Shown: positions 2,578-36,516, counted from the first letter of the stretch. The stretch: DNA of 64,000 nt from Vicinamibacterales bacterium (GCA_041947015.1 JBHGBL010000011.1:59915-123914); one strand, 5' to 3'. Numbers and translations are program-made. The notes: a model not told the origin generated them from the sequence alone.

Positions 2578-5394
2578 CTACTGCCGCTTCGAGTAGCGCT
2601 CGTAGAGCGCCAGGTGCTTGTTCGACATGTCCACGTCCCGCCCGTTGATGAAGACGTGGGTCACCTCGGTTCTGACCTCGAGCGGGTCGCCTTTGGCGAC
2701 GAGAAGGTTGGCGACCTTGCCGGGCTCTATGCTGCCCATGACATCGGCGACGCCGAGGATCTCAGCGGCGTTGATCGTCAGCGCCTTCAGCGCTTCGTCT
2801 CGTGGGAGCCCCCAGGCGATCGACATGGCCGCCTGGTAGGGCACCTGGCGGACGTTTGCGTGGTCGCCGGTTGCGAAAGCGAACTTGACGCCAGCCCTGG
2901 CGAGCTCGCCCGCCGCCATGTAGCTCGCGGCATGGAACATGTCGTCGCGGGTGGGCAGGGCCAGAATCGGCCCCAGGATGACGGGGATCTTCTTCTCTGC
3001 GAGAAGCGGGGCGACCAGCGCGGCCTCCGGGCCGGCCATCATGACGACCCTGACGTTCGCCTTCTCGGCGAAGGCCACCGCGTCCTTGATGTCCTGCTCG
3101 CGCGCAGCGTTCGTGAACAGCGGGATCTTGCCTTCGACGACCGGCACCAGCGCGTCGAGCACCCAGTCCACCTCGCGGTCCGGCCCCGCGGCCTTCGCAT
3201 AGGCCCTGGCCCGATCGAAGAGCCGGACGAGGGCTTCGAGCCGCTGGTCGCGCTGCCTCTTCATGTCCTCGTAGGTCTGCTCCGCTCCCGGTGCTCCGCC
3301 TGGCGCCGCGCTTCCTCCCCGCCCTCCGCCGCCTACCGACGGGAACTGGAAGGTGATGCCCGATGAGCGTCGGACCATGCTCTCTTCCCACGTCCACCCG
3401 TCCAGGTTCATCACCGGCACCTCGCCTCCGAGAATTCCCCCCGACGGCATCACGGCAACCGTCGTCACGCCGTTCGCCCTCGCCACGGGGATGGACTCGC
3501 TGTCGTTGTGATAGGCGACAACGGTCCGCATCTGCGGGTTGTAGTCGAGCATCTCAGAGGTGTCCTGGTACCCGCCGGCGCCGGGCTCGGCGAGGCCGAT
3601 GGTCGTCCTGGCGTTGATCCAGCCCGGGTAGACCTCGCCGCCTGCCGCGTCGATGACCCTTGCCCCCGCCGGGGGCTTCACGTCCGCGCCGACCGCCTCG
3701 ATCTTCCCGTCGCGGATGACGATGGTGCCCCGCTCGATGACGGGCCTGGTAACTGGAACGATCCTGGCATTGGTTATCGCGATGACGCCCTGGCCCATGA
3801 GCGGCCGCGGCTTCGGGCCGGACTGCGGTTCATAGCGCGGCGCTTCTGGCAACGGTCCAAGCTCCGGCTCATCGCCGTCAGCCCGGCCGGCCAATCCTGC
3901 CTCGTGCTCGGGCACCGTCGTCGTCGGCTTCCTTTCAGCCTTCTCGGCCGCAATCAGCCGCTGCTTCTCCTTGACGACGTCCGCCGCACGCGCAAGGTCC
4001 TTCTCGCGATCGTAGTAGAGCGTGCCGTCGATGTAGGTGCGCTCCACCGTCGCGTATGAACTGAGCGGGTGGCGGTTCCAGATGACGACGTCCGCGTCCT
4101 TGCCCACTTCGAGGGAACCGACGCGCTTGTCGAGCTTCAGCTGCTTCGCCGGGTTGATCGTCACGAGCGCGAGCGCCTGGTCCTCCGTCAGCCCGCCCCA
4201 GTGCATCATCTTGGCGGCCTCGCTGGGAAGCCGGCGCGCATGCTCGGCGCTGTCCGAGTTGATCGAAACGACGACGCCGGCCCTCATCATCAGGGCGGCG
4301 TTGTACGGGATGGCATCGATCGCTTCAATCTTGTACGCCCACCAGTCGGAGAAGGTGCCGACCCCGGCGCCGTGCTCGGCAAGCTCTTTGGCGATCTTGT
4401 AGCCCTCCAGACCGTGTTCGAAGGTGTTCACCTTGAAGCCGAACTCCTCGGCGAGGCGGAGCGACATCAGCATCTCGTCCGACCTGTAGGCGTGTACGTG
4501 GGTCAGGCGTTTGCCCTCGAGGACTTCGACGAGTGGGTCGAGCTGGAGGTCGCGCCGCGGCGGGATGACGTCCTCGCCCGCCTTCCTGCGCCGCTCGTAC
4601 TCCTGCCAGGCGCGCTGGTAGGCCTTCGCGCGGGTAAACGCGTCGCGAATGACGAACTCGACGCCCGGGCGGCTCGCCGGGTATCGGCGAGGGCCGGTTG
4701 CCCGCCCGCCCGTCTGCATGTCCTTGGGGTTCTCGCCGAGCGCGAACTTCAATCCAGGCAGCGCCGCGTCGAAGAGGAACTCCTCCGGGCGCGTCTTTCC
4801 CCACCGGAGCTTGATGACGGTGTTGGTGCCACCGATCGGGTTCGCGCTGCCGTGGTAGACGCTCGCCACCGTCAGGCCGCCCGCCAGGTCTCGGTATATG
4901 TTCACGTCACGCGGGTTGAAGACGTCCTCGATGCGGGTCATCGAGCTCACCGTCGTCCCGCTCTCGTTGATCGAGTCGGCCGCGATGTGCGAGTGCTCGT
5001 CGATGATGCCGGGGCTTACGAACTTGCCGGTTGCATCGACGACCTCCGCGCCCGGTGGCGCCTGGATGTTCGCGCCGACTGCCGCGATCTTCCCGTCGCG
5101 AAGCAGGATGGACCCGTTCGGAATCGTCCCTTTCGTAACGGTAAGTATCGTGGCGCCTTTGATGAGCACGGGCGGGCCCGGCTTCTGTGCCACCGGCCGC
5201 AGCGTGGCCGGCGTCATCTCTGTGGCGGCGGGAGCGACCGCGCCAGCCTGCTTGGGCGCGGCCGCGCGAGGCGCCTGCTGCGTCGAAAGATTCGATCCCT
5301 GGCTGCCCAGGACAGGCACTTGCAGCGCCAGTGCGATGGCCAGACAAGCACAGGCCATCGGCCACTTACGAGTAGAGAGAAATGGACGTTTCAC
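2578..5394 (-). CDS. Secreted two-module amidohydrolase-superfamily protein
   Basis: GTG start at 5394 with SD AAGGAGGG. It has a signal-like N-terminus. The first module carries [11 protein letters not shown] (HxH). The second module ([12 protein letters not shown]) lacks HxH. Confidence 0.85.
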
Positions 5395-5404
5395 AGTTCC
5401 CTCC

Positions 5405-5625
5405 TTGATGAAGGACTGAGGGCGGAGGACTGACTGAGGACTGAGTAAAATGAGTGATGGGGACTACGGGGCCGAAACCTAGGCGCAAATCTCAAACCTC
5501 GAACCGCGAACCTCGAGACTCACAACTCGTAACTATCTCAGTCCCCGATTCTCATCCCTCAGTCCTTACCCCAGTCCCCATACCTCAGTCCTCGCACCCC
5601 GGTCCTCATACCTCAGTCCTGCCCC
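5405..5625. repeat. Inverted/direct repeat array built on GGACTGAG / CTCAGTCC
   Basis: Left arm: GGACTGAG at 5413 and 5438, with degenerate copies at 5427 and 5461. Right arm: the reverse complement CTCAGTCC at 5537, 5558, 5584 and 5612, with degenerate copies at 5570 and 5598. The 14-mer CATACCTCAGTCCT occurs at 5579 and 5607 (28-bp period). The lower-GC core (5472-5536) has AACCTCGA at 5495 and 5509. Confidence 0.7.
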
Positions 5626-6446
5626 GGTGCGCTCCTTGGTTTGTCTTCCTCGAACACCCAGTCTTCGATCGCTTCGTCGTACTTCACGGAAGTTTGCGTG
5701 ATGGGCAGCGCCAGTGTCTCGACCACCTTATCGCCGCGGACGCTGATGTTGAACTCGTTCACCTTCGTCGCGAAGGTGACGCCCCCGAAATCCTTGAAGT
5801 TCCAGTACACGCGGCGCACCTGCGGTGCCCCCTTCAGGTAATGGATCTCCTGAAGGAGGTGGAAGCTTTCCTTGTCGAAGTAGAGGTCCGTCTGCTCTTC
5901 GCCTTCAGTCACGCGCACGACCCAAGCGGGCCGGCTGCCCATCACCTTCAGCACGCGGGACCCAGGCTCCTCGGGGACCTTCCACTCGACGACGGCGTCC
6001 GGCTGAAGGGTCATCTCGCCCGGGTGCCCGACGTAGTGTGCGGGTCCGTAGCACTGGTCCAGCCACCGCCGGAGCCTCGCCGCATCTGCGCGACGGACGA
6101 TGAGCGAGGTGCGCGACCAGGCGGTGCCATCGTTCAGGAAGTACTCGTCGAAGCGGCGGCCCCGGTCGGCCGTGAGATCGTGCTCGACGCGGAGCTTGCC
6201 CGGTGACTTCGCCTGCACCCTGTACGCGGCCATGTAGGCGATACCGTCCTGCATCTCCACGGTGCCGTCGATCGTGATTGTCTTCCAGTTCGACAGCCTG
6301 TCGCCTCCGTGGGCTCGTACCGAGCGCTCGATGACATCCTGGGCGGTCCTGGGCGTACGCGAGCAGGCGACACTGCCGCCAAGAGCGACCGCCAGGCCGA
6401 GTGCAATTGTGCTTCTCATGACGGCGACCCCGTCTCTTCCGAACAT
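5613..6446 (-). CDS. Lipoprotein of unknown function (LolA-like size and composition)
   Basis: Lipobox LGGSVAC after MRSTIALGLAVA. The alternative start at 6419 gives a canonical lipoprotein signal. ATG 6446 directly abuts the upstream stop. Confidence 0.6.
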   Translation of the reverse strand: MFGRDGVAVMRSTIALGLAVALGGSVACSRTPRTAQDVIERSVRAHGGDRLSNWKTITIDGTVEMQDGIAYMAAYRVQAKSPGKLRVEHDLTADRGRRFDEYFLNDGTAWSRTSLIVRRADAARLRRWLDQCYGPAHYVGHPGEMTLQPDAVVEWKVPEEPGSRVLKVMGSRPAWVVRVTEGEEQTDLYFDKESFHLLQEIHYLKGAPQVRRVYWNFKDFGGVTFATKVNEFNISVRGDKVVETLALPITQTSVKYDEAIEDWVFEEDKPRSAPGQD

Positions 6447-10445: not shown

Positions 10446-11459
10446 TTACCGCCGCACCACGATCCCGACGGGCGTCAGCAGCCGTACTGTCAGAATCGTG
10501 CCGGCCGCCAGGTCTACGACCTGCTCGTTTCCCGCCATTACAACCGCGGTGCCGCCTGCCGCGCCGAGCGTGCCGCCAATCACCGCACCCTTCTTGCCGC
10601 CGAGGATCGCTCCGAGCACCGCACCCCCCGCAGCCGCGCCGCCGATTTTCGCGGCGCTCTTCTTCGCGGGTGAAGCACTTTCGCGGTAGACCGTCTCCGT
10701 GTTGATCGACGTGCGTGTGCCGTCTGGGAGCACAACGGTGTGGAACCGGATCCCGATGCGGCCGCGCTCCTTCATCTTGCCGCCGTGCTCGACGAGGGTT
10801 ACCGACCCGATCACCCGCGACCCGGCCGGGATGGCAGCCTCCTCGCCGGCAACAACGTCACGCGTCACCCGCGCCTCGACCACGTCCTCGATCGCAGCAG
10901 TCGCGCTGGAAACCCCTGTGTCCAGCTGCAGGCCAATGACAGACTCCGCCGGGACCACGAGCTCGTCGTATTCGGGCTCCTCCGGAACTGACCGAACCTG
11001 CTCCGATTGAAGGGGCGTGAGGTTGGCCGGCTCCCCCTTGGACTCAGTGCGCACCGCCTCGGGCGGCGCGGCCGCGACACCCGCCTCAGACGATTCTGCT
11101 CCGCCAGCGCGCGGGGCCGGGGTGTTCGCTTCGGCCCCTTCCTCAGTCCCGCGTCTGGAAACCTCGCCGGCCGACCGCTTGCCTGACTTCGAGCGGTTGT
11201 CCGCGGTTCGCTCCGGGGATGCCGTCCGGTCGGACACGGGCCTGAGTATCGGGTCCATGGTCGGCCTCTCCTCGGCCTTGGGGAGAGCCACCGAGGGTGC
11301 TGGTCGGGAGGCCTGCTGCCGGGCACCCTCGGCCGGAGCCGCAGAAACGCCTGCCGTGCCGGGGACCGCGCCGTGCCTGGTAGCCAGGTATCCGCCGCCG
11401 GCGGCGGCAGCCATTGCCGCGAGGATTACTACACCGAACACGAGGGGTCGCCGGTTCAT
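10446..11459 (-). CDS. Membrane-anchored protein with a TrbI/VirB10-like beta domain and a C-terminal glycine zipper
   Basis: ATG 11459 with SD AGGAGA. It has an N-terminal TM segment (LVFGVVILAAMAAAAGGG) and a Pro/Ala/Glu-rich linker. IPAGSRVIGSVT...GRIGIRFHTVVLPDGT resembles the TrbI pattern (from memory). The tail reads GGAAAGGAVLGAILGGKKGAVIGGTLGAAGG. Confidence 0.6.
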   Translation of the reverse strand: MNRRPLVFGVVILAAMAAAAGGGYLATRHGAVPGTAGVSAAPAEGARQQASRPAPSVALPKAEERPTMDPILRPVSDRTASPERTADNRSKSGKRSAGEVSRRGTEEGAEANTPAPRAGGAESSEAGVAAAPPEAVRTESKGEPANLTPLQSEQVRSVPEEPEYDELVVPAESVIGLQLDTGVSSATAAIEDVVEARVTRDVVAGEEAAIPAGSRVIGSVTLVEHGGKMKERGRIGIRFHTVVLPDGTRTSINTETVYRESASPAKKSAAKIGGAAAGGAVLGAILGGKKGAVIGGTLGAAGGTAVVMAGNEQVVDLAAGTILTVRLLTPVGIVVRR

Positions 11460-35201: not shown

Positions 35202-35310
35202 GTATCGGAGAGGATCGAGAGGGCTGAGAGCACGAGGACCCGGAGGCCGTGGCGCGATGCGGCTGAAGCCATGACAGAGTCCTTGGCGGGGGCATAACCG
35301 AAAGCCGCTC

Positions 35311-35352
35311 GCTGCCCGCTGATCGCTGAAAGCTGTTCGCTGATCGCTGCTA
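35311..35352 (+). repeat. Six GCTG motifs at an exact 7-nt period upstream of ATG 35359
   Basis: GCTG at 35311, 35318, 35325, 35332, 35339 and 35346 (units GCTGCCC, GCTGATC, GCTGAAA, GCTGTTC, GCTGATC, GCTGCTA). There is no obvious SD between the array and the ATG. Confidence 0.6.
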
Positions 35353-35358
35353 ACCACT

Positions 35359-36516
35359 ATGTCGCACAAGTTCGTTTTGCTGGGATCGGGCAGGCAGGCT
35401 GTTGCTGCTGGATACGACTTCGCGCGGTTTGGAGACGCATCGGAGATCGTGATGGCGGACATCGACGAAGCTGTTGCCGAGGCAGCCGCTTTGAAGATCA
35501 ACCGCCTCGCCGGCCGGGCAGTGGCTCGCGGGCAGCGGCTGGACATCCGCGACACCGCCGCGGTTGGCAGGCTGCTCGAGGGCGCTTCGGCCTGCGTGAG
35601 CGCCGTCCATTACACCTACAACGTGGCGGTAACACGGCAGGCAATCGCCAGCCGGGTTCACATGACCGACTTCGGCGGAAACACGGCGGTCGTCCGCGAG
35701 CAGCTCGGCCTTGACGAGCAAGCGAGGCGGGCAGGGGTGACGGTAGTGCCGGACTGCGGGATGGGGCCCGGCCTCAACGTGTCGCTCGCGATGCACGTCA
35801 TGTCACGAGTCGAGAAGCCGCGCCAGGTGCGAATCTGGGACGGGGGTCTGCCCCAGGATCCGGAGCCTCCGTGGAACTTCGCGCTCACCTTCGCGGTGGC
35901 CGGACTGACCAACGAGTACGACGGTGTCGCGACGTTCATCCGCGAGGGGCGGTTGACCGAGGTCCCGTGTTTCTCGGACCTGGAGGAACTCGAGTTTCCG
36001 GAGCCAGTCGGGCGCCTGGAAGCGTTCGTGACCTCCGGAGGCCTCTCGACCGCCCCTTGGACGCTGCTGGGCCGCCTGGAGCGCCTCGAGAACAAGACGC
36101 TGCGCTATCCTGGCCACGCCGCCCGGTTCAAGGCGTTTTCGGATCTCGGCCTGCTCGACCAGAGGCCCATCAAGGTGGGGGGGATCGAGGTGGCGCCGCG
36201 CGACGTCTTCCACGTCCTGCTCGAAGCTCGCCTGGGGATGAGCGAAGTGAAGGATGTGTGCGTGATGCGGGTGACCTGCACCGGAGAAGCAGGCGGCCGG
36301 CCTGCCGCTCAAACCGTTCAGCTCATCGACCGCTACGATCCGGCGACCGGGTTCATGGCCATGCAGCGCCTGACGGGGTGGCATGCATCGATCATGGCAA
36401 TCGCCGCCTGCCAGGGCCGGGTGCGGCGCGGGGTCGTGTCGGTGGAGAACGCGCTGCCTGGAAGCGAGGTGGTCGCTGACGCGCGGAAGCGCGGCATCGA
36501 GATCGTGGACCTGTAG
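35359..36516 (+). CDS. Saccharopine dehydrogenase family NAD(P)-binding oxidoreductase
   Basis: N-terminal Rossmann segment FVLLGSGRQAVAAGYDF, and length and layout typical of the Sacchrp_dh family. Confidence 0.8.
   Translation: MSHKFVLLGSGRQAVAAGYDFARFGDASEIVMADIDEAVAEAAALKINRLAGRAVARGQRLDIRDTAAVGRLLEGASACVSAVHYTYNVAVTRQAIASRVHMTDFGGNTAVVREQLGLDEQARRAGVTVVPDCGMGPGLNVSLAMHVMSRVEKPRQVRIWDGGLPQDPEPPWNFALTFAVAGLTNEYDGVATFIREGRLTEVPCFSDLEELEFPEPVGRLEAFVTSGGLSTAPWTLLGRLERLENKTLRYPGHAARFKAFSDLGLLDQRPIKVGGIEVAPRDVFHVLLEARLGMSEVKDVCVMRVTCTGEAGGRPAAQTVQLIDRYDPATGFMAMQRLTGWHASIMAIAACQGRVRRGVVSVENALPGSEVVADARKRGIEIVDL

Follow-up and report, generated by a model that had tools for sequence, protein, structure and literature searches.

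The REP, BIME and REPIN elements of enterobacteria and pseudomonads are intergenic or intercistronic palindromic repeats that form hairpins in mRNA and can stabilise the upstream cistrons. The REP unit is fixed, measures 20-40 nt and has a conserved head; REP sequences are present in hundreds of copies and are linked to the RAYT transposases. Among long simple-sequence repeats (SSRs), heptamers are reported to be the most over-represented in bacteria, an excess that has been ascribed to polymerase slippage (Mrazek et al., 2007), and three tandemly repeated heptanucleotides, the STRR repeats, have been described in Calothrix (Mazel et al., 1990). Heptameric intergenic repeats with the unit GGGAATC in Xanthomonas and GGGGA(C/T)T in Nostoc were reported by Rehm et al. 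(2015; PMC4692102). The Xanthomonas repeats form 70-75 pairs per genome in 'convergent orientation', with the potential to form stem-loops; within 0-50 bp downstream of a stop codon, or across it, the G-rich strand is the coding one, and immediately before the following ORF it is the non-coding one. These repeats are transcribed, their length and sequence differ among close relatives, and the intergenic regions that bear repeats are more conserved than control regions (PMC4692102). In the 5'-UTR of hmw1A of Haemophilus influenzae, an (ATCTTTC)n repeat takes part in a hairpin that is cut by RNase III and controls expression, and whose stem length follows the number of repeats (PMC12721329). Finally, TAACTGA repeats, for which no spreading mechanism is known, occur in marine Beggiatoaceae, Cyanobacteria and Bacteroidetes; in the Beggiatoaceae they are clustered just upstream of start codons, and binding of S1, Csp or CsrA-type proteins has been proposed (MacGregor, 2015; PMC4679880).

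The element described here occupies positions 5405-5625 of the window, by which we mean the whole 64-kb stretch of DNA that was analysed. It is a decayed example of the heptameric long SSR type, in a phylum from which we found no description of such repeats; a literature search with the exact string (GGACTGA)2 retrieved no relevant paper. It has in common with the Xanthomonas/Nostoc type the tandem 7-nt intergenic units, the paired arms and a G-rich coding strand at the stop codon, and the combination of intergenic site, G-rich strand at the stop and convergent partner array agrees both with the Xanthomonas rule and with the 32:1 ratio of arm orders reported below. It differs from that type in its unit, which is GGACTGA-like and mostly without the G-runs needed for the quadruplexes studied there, in the degeneracy of its copies and in its host, a soil acidobacterium of the Vicinamibacterales. 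The cyanobacterial STRR are also heptanucleotide tandem arrays in non-coding intergenic DNA. The sequence of STRR1, which we take to be CCCCAGT, is one base off CCTCAGT, and CCCCAGT itself is present in the array of the window at 5569. However, the STRR arrays are abundant, near-perfect and dispersed, and were defined in heterocystous cyanobacteria, whereas the window, which belongs to an acidobacterium, contains one decayed inverted pair and one other heptamer array in its 64 kb.

Both the hmw1A repeat and the element of the window (if, as we presume, it is transcribed) are heptamer repeats upstream of a gene that supply one arm of a long RNA hairpin. The hmw1A repeat, however, is located in a 5'-UTR behind its own promoter and not between cistrons, its pyrimidine-rich arm comes first and its second arm is a G-rich non-repeat; moreover, its function has been demonstrated experimentally, whereas a function of the element in the window is only inferred. 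The TAACTGA repeats resemble this element in having a heptamer with an ACTGA core, an intergenic location and a patchy distribution across phyla, but they form 169 direct sets versus one indirect set and lie on the sense strand just upstream of starts, whereas the arrays of the window are inverted and their sense-strand copy is at the stop codon. The element may work as an intercistronic hairpin in the manner of REP sequences; unlike them, it is built of 7-nt slippage units, with no fixed unit and with a locus-specific interior.

A degenerate heptamer array in an intercistronic spacer

The spacer is part of a run of genes that are all located on the minus strand and encode a DUF6599 protein, an aldo-keto reductase, a 277-aa protein and two amidohydrolases. 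The gene boundaries of the original prediction were correct: 218 nt separate the TGA stop codon (5615-5613) of the 277-aa gene (5613-6446) from the GTG start codon (5394-5392) of the 938-aa gene (2578-5394), which encodes two amidohydrolase domains and is preceded by the SD AAGGAGGG at 5405-5398 (SD and start together, 5392-5405). The upstream protein had been called a lipoprotein, a label that agrees with its signal-peptide-like N-terminus containing a Cys (the protein is secreted or lipoprotein-like) but receives no backing from Pfam, in which it has no match. A hypothetical protein from a MAG of the Vicinamibacterales (Acidobacteriota) matches this protein at 100% identity, and an independent Logan contig carries a spacer identical to that of the window. 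As had been noticed for its core, the spacer is less GC-rich than its flanks (0.52-0.57 versus 0.63-0.75) and includes a duplication of AACCTCGA, which the repeat finder placed at 5495 and 5509.

The array of 8-mers on which the original prediction was based is real. A motif search of the 64-kb window located CTCAGTCC on the plus strand at 5537, 5558, 5584 and 5612 and its reverse complement at 5413 and 5438, while a search of either strand gave a single extra copy outside 5405-5625, at 11142. A total of seven copies in the window is reached by 2 of 100 shuffles, yet six of the seven copies are clustered in 210 nt. The 14-mer CATACCTCAGTCCT is found at 5579 and 5607, 28 nt apart, and with one mismatch at 5553 (three matches are reached in none of 100 shuffles); no copy was detected beyond 5405-5625 in the 64-kb window. 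In addition, the repeat finder reported three direct copies of 29 nt, spaced by 26 and 28 nt, and 24 inverted pairings between the left and the right part of the spacer.

The 28-bp period proposed for the 14-mer thus holds for the spacing of the copies at 5579 and 5607, but the fundamental period is 7 nt, and not 8, 14 or 28. Over the whole region, autocorrelation reaches z=8.7 at lag 7 and z=8.5 at lag 14, and the left arm, the core and the right arm each show the 7-nt periodicity on their own (lag-7 z of 3.5-5.6); Tandem Repeats Finder (TRF) gives periods of 7, 14 and 28 on the same stretch. Since the lag-7 signal and the TRF results reveal a degenerate heptanucleotide array, the 8-mer, the 14-mer and the 28-nt period are higher-order features of this array. 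The TRF match level of 59-77% corresponds to degenerate copies, with no run of three or more identical units; the array is decayed and lacks the perfect or near-perfect iteration, longer than expected by chance, of heptameric long SSRs. Read on the mRNA, the 5' arm runs AGGACUG AGGUAUG AGGACCG GGGUGCG AGGACUG AGGUAUG GGGACUG ..., the inner array UCUCGAG GUUCGCG GUUCGAG GUUUGAG AUUUGCG, and the 3' end of the spacer ... CUCAGUC CUCAGUC AGUCCUC CGCCCUC AGUCCUU. The units of 26-28 nt are contiguous, have no spacers between them and resolve into 7-mers, in agreement with the earlier statement that this is not a CRISPR array.

On the minus-strand transcript, the 5' arm (5537-5625) is a G-rich array of degenerate heptamers with a higher-order unit of 14/28 nt, of which the copies of CTCAGTCC are the plus-strand view. 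The TGA stop codon of the 277-aa gene (5613-5615) is located within the first GGACTGA unit and within the basal helix of the predicted hairpin. The core (5471-5536) corresponds to the inner heptamer array, and the 3' arm (5409-5470) to a C-rich inverted array (..AGUCCCCAUCACUCA..CUCAGUCCUCAGUCAGUCCUCCGCCCUCAGUCCUU); the 3' arm stops 5 nt short of the SD and is shorter than the 5' arm (~62 nt versus ~89 nt). The arms are G-rich then C-rich when read on either strand, and the G-rich arm begins inside the upstream stop codon. On the minus strand, a 14-nt superunit AGGACUGAGGUAUG (~5540-5620) consists of AGGA, 7 nt and AUG, and these superunits create three mini-ORFs of 16, 9 and 5 codons, each closing at a UGA of the array, which are probably a coincidence of the repeat. 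Elsewhere in the 64-kb window, comparable 7-nt periodicity is found only at 35291-35350, in another degenerate heptamer array with about five units of a different, CGCTGAT-like sequence; its end is 9 nt upstream of the ATG (35359) of a plus-strand gene (35359-36516).

When folded from 5665 to 5365, the mRNA is predicted to form one imperfect hairpin with a span of ~210 nt. The fold of the minus strand (-109.1 kcal/mol, z=-3.64) is better than those of all 200 dinucleotide shuffles, which supports the multi-register hairpin originally envisaged; the fold of the plus strand also surpasses all 200 (z=-4.25). In the predicted basal helix, AGGACUGA (5620-5613, including the stop codon) pairs with UCAGUCCU (5419-5412); further predicted helices of 9 and 11 bp join other units, and the apex is the 13+4 bp hairpin of the inner array. 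The arms had been said to end a few nucleotides from the SD, and the 3' foot of the predicted hairpin is indeed 5 nt away from it. As the long hairpin leaves the SD unsequestered, outside its stem, there is no obvious direct translational switch. For the SD GGAGGGAA itself, the fold predicts pairing with UUCUCUCU (5381-5374), in codons 5-7 of the gene that it serves, and a probability of being unpaired of 0.13; such a local hairpin would dampen translation without involvement of the repeat stem. Four G-runs that derive from degenerate copies on the minus strand at 5543-5579 (GGGG-ACU-GGGG-UAAGGACUGA-GGG-AUGAGAAUC-GGGG) might, under relaxed loop rules, form a G-quadruplex competing with the hairpin. 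A scan of 5200-5800 detected neither a sigma-70-like promoter site nor a hairpin-plus-U-tract terminator, the hairpin being followed by CAUCAAGGAGGG. In Rfam, the sole match of the spacer region was MIR831, a sub-threshold chance match (27.4 bits versus a gathering score of 100), and ten array-bearing loci gave nothing relevant.

Growth of the outer arms at the stop codon

The two nearest relatives (L002 and L127) have amino-acid identities of 76-77%. The window and both relatives present an inner (NNNYGAG) array ~30 nt past the stop codon, with units that are specific to each lineage: GUUCGAG-like in the window, UYYCGAG-like in L002 and CCYUGAG in L127. The stop context GACUGAGGAC is common to the window and L002; in L127 the stop codon is TAG, and the stop context shared with L002 is limited to GACGGAG. 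The SD and GTG of the amidohydrolase gene are common to the window and L127, the contig of L002 ending earlier. By comparison with these relatives, the window alone has ~78 nt of extra AGGACUG/AGGUAUG units at the stop codon, and it alone has the complementary, C-rich arm. Because the relatives share the inner array and the stop context and lack the outer arms, the outer arms evidently grew in situ from the context of the stop codon, with nothing inserted from elsewhere. The ~78-nt block has altered the C-terminal tail of the 277-aa protein, which is thus remodelled by the expansion of the array. A variant 15-mer is present in both arms, as AGTCCCCATACCTCA and AGTCCCCATCACTCA (form AGTCCCCAT(A/C)(C/A)CTCA), and points to the inverted duplication of a multi-unit block rather than to independent slippage in each arm. 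In the 76%-identical relative, all five independent Logan contigs (L002-L006) stop 175-189 nt past the end of the orthologous gene, counted from its stop codon; short-read assembly thus breaks at one point of the spacer.

More distant orthologous loci were collected in a metagenome scan with an alignment of the 277-aa protein, which yielded 41 loci and 27 non-redundant post-stop regions. Period-7 arrays are present in five of these 27 regions (6/28 when the window's own is counted) and a period-6 array in one (L159); four of the 27 fold exceptionally well (z <= -4.4), and about 20 have neither an array nor an unusual fold. In L140 (3226-3340) and L141 (935-1047), we observed a (GAATTGA)n..(TCAATTC)n hairpin whose first unit holds the TGA stop of the orthologue of the 277-aa gene, and in L146 a heptamer hairpin that starts in the stop codon and is unrelated in sequence to that of the window. 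The unit class AATTCTC, to which L140 and L141 belong, is also found paired at three loci (L021, L031 and L061) of the Blastocatellia MAG SSF51. Judging from these alignments, the habit of forming arrays recurs at the orthologous site and the sequence of the array does not. The hairpin is not conserved among the 27 regions compared, alignable sequence being confined to the two relatives, and no conserved RNA element resides at the orthologous site. As ~20 of the 27 regions lack both an array and an unusual fold, any function is dispensable or lineage-specific. The original prediction was to be given up if the unit proved unique to this locus and orthologous loci showed no conservation: the element is indeed not conserved in the orthologues, whereas its unit is anything but unique among bacteria.

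GGACTGA/CCTCAGT arrays in other bacteria

A scan of one genome per GTDB species with the pattern CCTCAGTCCT N(4-30) CCTCAGTCCT retrieved at least 120 stretches. According to record titles, the matches listed come from at least 15 phyla, and include Acidobacteriota, Chloroflexota, Cyanobacteriota, Gemmatimonadota, Nitrospirota, Planctomycetota, Desulfobacterota and several proteobacterial classes; among them are at least ten loci in one Blastocatellia MAG (SSF51) and the cyanobacterial genomes of Coleofasciculus, Okeania and Egbenema. The spacing between copies, among the matches listed, is 7 nt in 248 cases and 14 nt in 40, followed by 21, 28 and 35 nt, as in perfect (CCTCAGT)n; these perfect arrays reach 17 units among the same matches, and their lengths step by 7 nt. 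Over the 825 kb retrieved, 160 perfect tandem repeats of at least three units have period 7, versus 0, 5, 10 and 3 with periods 5, 6, 8 and 9, respectively.

About one third of the arrays among the matches listed are in inverted pairs, with arms 11-307 nt apart. The arm order of the GGACTGA inverted pairs listed is G-rich then C-rich in 32 cases and the reverse in one; other heptamers of the same loci give 15:0 for G-rich first, plus four zero-skew pairs. The G-rich-first order was observed for inverted heptamer pairs of any unit, in loci L007-L126 and L127-L167. Heuristic ORF calls place the paired arrays mostly between co-oriented (16) or convergent (4) genes and the start of the G-rich arm usually 1-27 nt after a stop codon. 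At the 3' ends of genes, the G-rich strand is the sense strand in a ratio of 54:3; this broader, bias-corrected count replaced a first stop-adjacent count of 66:7, which was biased because GGACTGA itself makes stops. Units with no stop in either orientation are divided 9:9, and those with a stop on the C-rich strand only still favour the G-rich orientation (10:4); the TGA stops present in all three frames account only partly for the orientation rule. The direction of replication or transcription does not explain the order of the arms, because the arrangement is its own reverse complement, and the duplex is the same in both arm arrangements. Candidate explanations are the avoidance of an unpaired C-rich loading site for Rho and seeding at TGA stop codons, the latter only partly supported.

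The interiors of 31 paired (GGACTGA)n loci are unrelated in all-against-all BLAST comparisons, save for two same-genome pairs that share 17-27 nt, so the loci do not represent a single mobile element in several copies. The repeat (CCTCAGT)3 is present in 24 viral contigs, and three composition-matched controls in 6, 7 and 38; the idea of a pan-bacterial factor specific for CCTCAGT was dropped, since one control heptamer is commoner (38 versus 24 viral contigs). Two further observations were made at these loci: in a Thermoanaerobaculia MAG (L108, 1020-1270), a ~250-nt array of GGACTTA/GGACTTG/GGACTCA adjoins a GGACTGA array and forms a very long, drifting tract; and a locus from Chloroflexia (L045, 3210-3451) contains a cobalamin riboswitch (RF00174, 33.9 bits) that is unrelated to the arrays.

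Origin and possible function

The reading that we favour, with a probability of roughly 45%, is that of an SSR hairpin grown by slippage which, if it is active at all, would be an intercistronic element for RNA processing or stability. An older inner heptamer array would have stood at the centre, and the stop context GACTGAG and its neighbours would have been multiplied by replication slippage, adding ~78 nt and a new C-terminal tail to the upstream protein; the opposite arm may have arisen by inverted duplication or by quasi-palindrome template switching. The spacer is presumably transcribed with its neighbours within the operon, given their common strand and the lack of promoter-like and terminator-like sites in between, and its transcript would fold into the imperfect hairpin of ~210 nt. 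The double-stranded stem could be cleaved by RNase III and/or hold back 3' exonucleases, in the manner of REP-type hairpins, and could thereby uncouple the amounts of the two cistrons. The length of the stem, and hence its effect, could drift fast by gain and loss of repeats. The hmw1A hairpin is the best experimental precedent and could be a model for the action of the element in the window. A processing or stability element had been among the functions originally put forward and remains viable, by analogy with such systems.

The same origin may instead have left a sequence with no function, the arrays being neutral debris of heptamer-prone slippage, tolerated since nothing constrains the spacer that separates a stop codon from the SD that follows, with the hairpin as a by-product. 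We consider this a serious, if somewhat doubtful, possibility. It is favoured by the lack of conservation at the orthologous site, where 5/27 regions (6/28 with the window) carry arrays and their units differ, by copies whose degeneracy (59-77% TRF matches) suggests decay rather than maintenance, by the unequal lengths of the arms (~89 versus ~62 nt), by the number of heptamers that form arrays (the controls in 38, 6 and 7 viral contigs versus 24) and by the literature, which blames polymerase slippage for the excess of heptamers. On the other hand, inverted pairing is far above the chance placement of rare arrays and its orientation is near-invariant (32:1 and 15:0), which implies either selection or a specific generating mechanism; the greater conservation of repeat-bearing intergenic regions relative to controls (Rehm et al., 2015; PMC4692102) and the demonstrated role of the heptamer-repeat hairpin of H. 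influenzae (PMC12721329) also argue against pure neutrality. The original prediction had further proposed a REP/MITE-like element. A mobile element of the MITE, REP or REPIN kind that had landed between the two genes, with a transposase acting on it in trans, could explain the long terminal inverted arms, the presence of the arm sequence at at least ten loci of single genomes such as Blastocatellia SSF51, the 17-27 nt of interior shared within two same-genome pairs of loci and the breaks of the nearest relative's assemblies in the spacer. We find it highly improbable nonetheless: there is no second full copy in 64 kb, a reading of the element's two ends showed no target-site duplication, both the interior and the innermost unit have their homologues in the native spacer of the relatives, the interiors of the 31 paired loci are otherwise unrelated, and arm lengths vary by 7-nt steps, as slippage and not transposition predicts. 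The class of MITEs was rejected because no target-site duplication was seen at the ends, the interior is native and the 31 paired loci have unrelated interiors, and that of REP/REPIN on the size of the unit, which is 7 nt instead of a fixed 20-40 nt; outside the element, the window has a single extra 8-mer copy (11142) and no 14-mer.

The array might also consist of binding sites for a sequence-specific DNA- or RNA-binding protein, either a multi-site operator, as had been suggested, or a translational regulator of the TAACTGA kind. Many copies of one 8-mer near an SD, together with the related TAACTGA clusters upstream of starts, for which S1-, Csp- or CsrA-type binding was proposed (MacGregor, 2015; PMC4679880), speak for such sites. 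Their unit, however, changes among orthologous loci, the contiguous 7-mers are not phased with the DNA helix, 5200-5800 contains no promoter-like site, most of the sites are predicted to be base-paired, and the strand beside the start codon carries the complement CUCAGUCC and not the G-rich unit; the operator finds no support, and a binding-site array of either kind is very unlikely. The stable fold predicted directly upstream of the amidohydrolase gene would suit a conserved structured ncRNA, a riboswitch or leader of that gene, or an intrinsic terminator, but Rfam returned only the sub-threshold MIR831 for the spacer and nothing relevant for ten array loci, nothing is conserved across orthologues and there is no U-tract, so that a conserved RNA or terminator is largely refuted and its probability minimal. 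A more ambitious proposal sees the inverted heptamer arrays that extend from a stop codon towards the next gene as a functional class of self-growing RNA hairpins found across bacteria and acting as repeat-number rheostats, with an arm order set by selection and a GGACTGA unit spread to numerous loci, in at least 15 phyla, by some copying mechanism and not by independent slippage; we regard it as unlikely. Selection on the order of the arms, if true, might for example avoid an unpaired C-rich Rho loading site in either direction of transcription.

At this locus the element carries little weight: a fast-evolving, non-conserved structure of the spacer may modestly shift the expression of a secreted protein relative to that of an amidohydrolase. 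For annotation it calls for caution, as heptamer arrays can alter C-terminal protein sequences and interrupt short-read assemblies. The cross-phylum pattern is more useful, with the dominance of period 7 in the loci retrieved, GGACTGA arrays in at least 15 phyla, a near-invariant arm order and arrays that start at stop codons. The rule described in Xanthomonas and Nostoc, on whose published observations this work builds, is now extended to Acidobacteriota, Chloroflexota, Gemmatimonadota, Nitrospirota and others.
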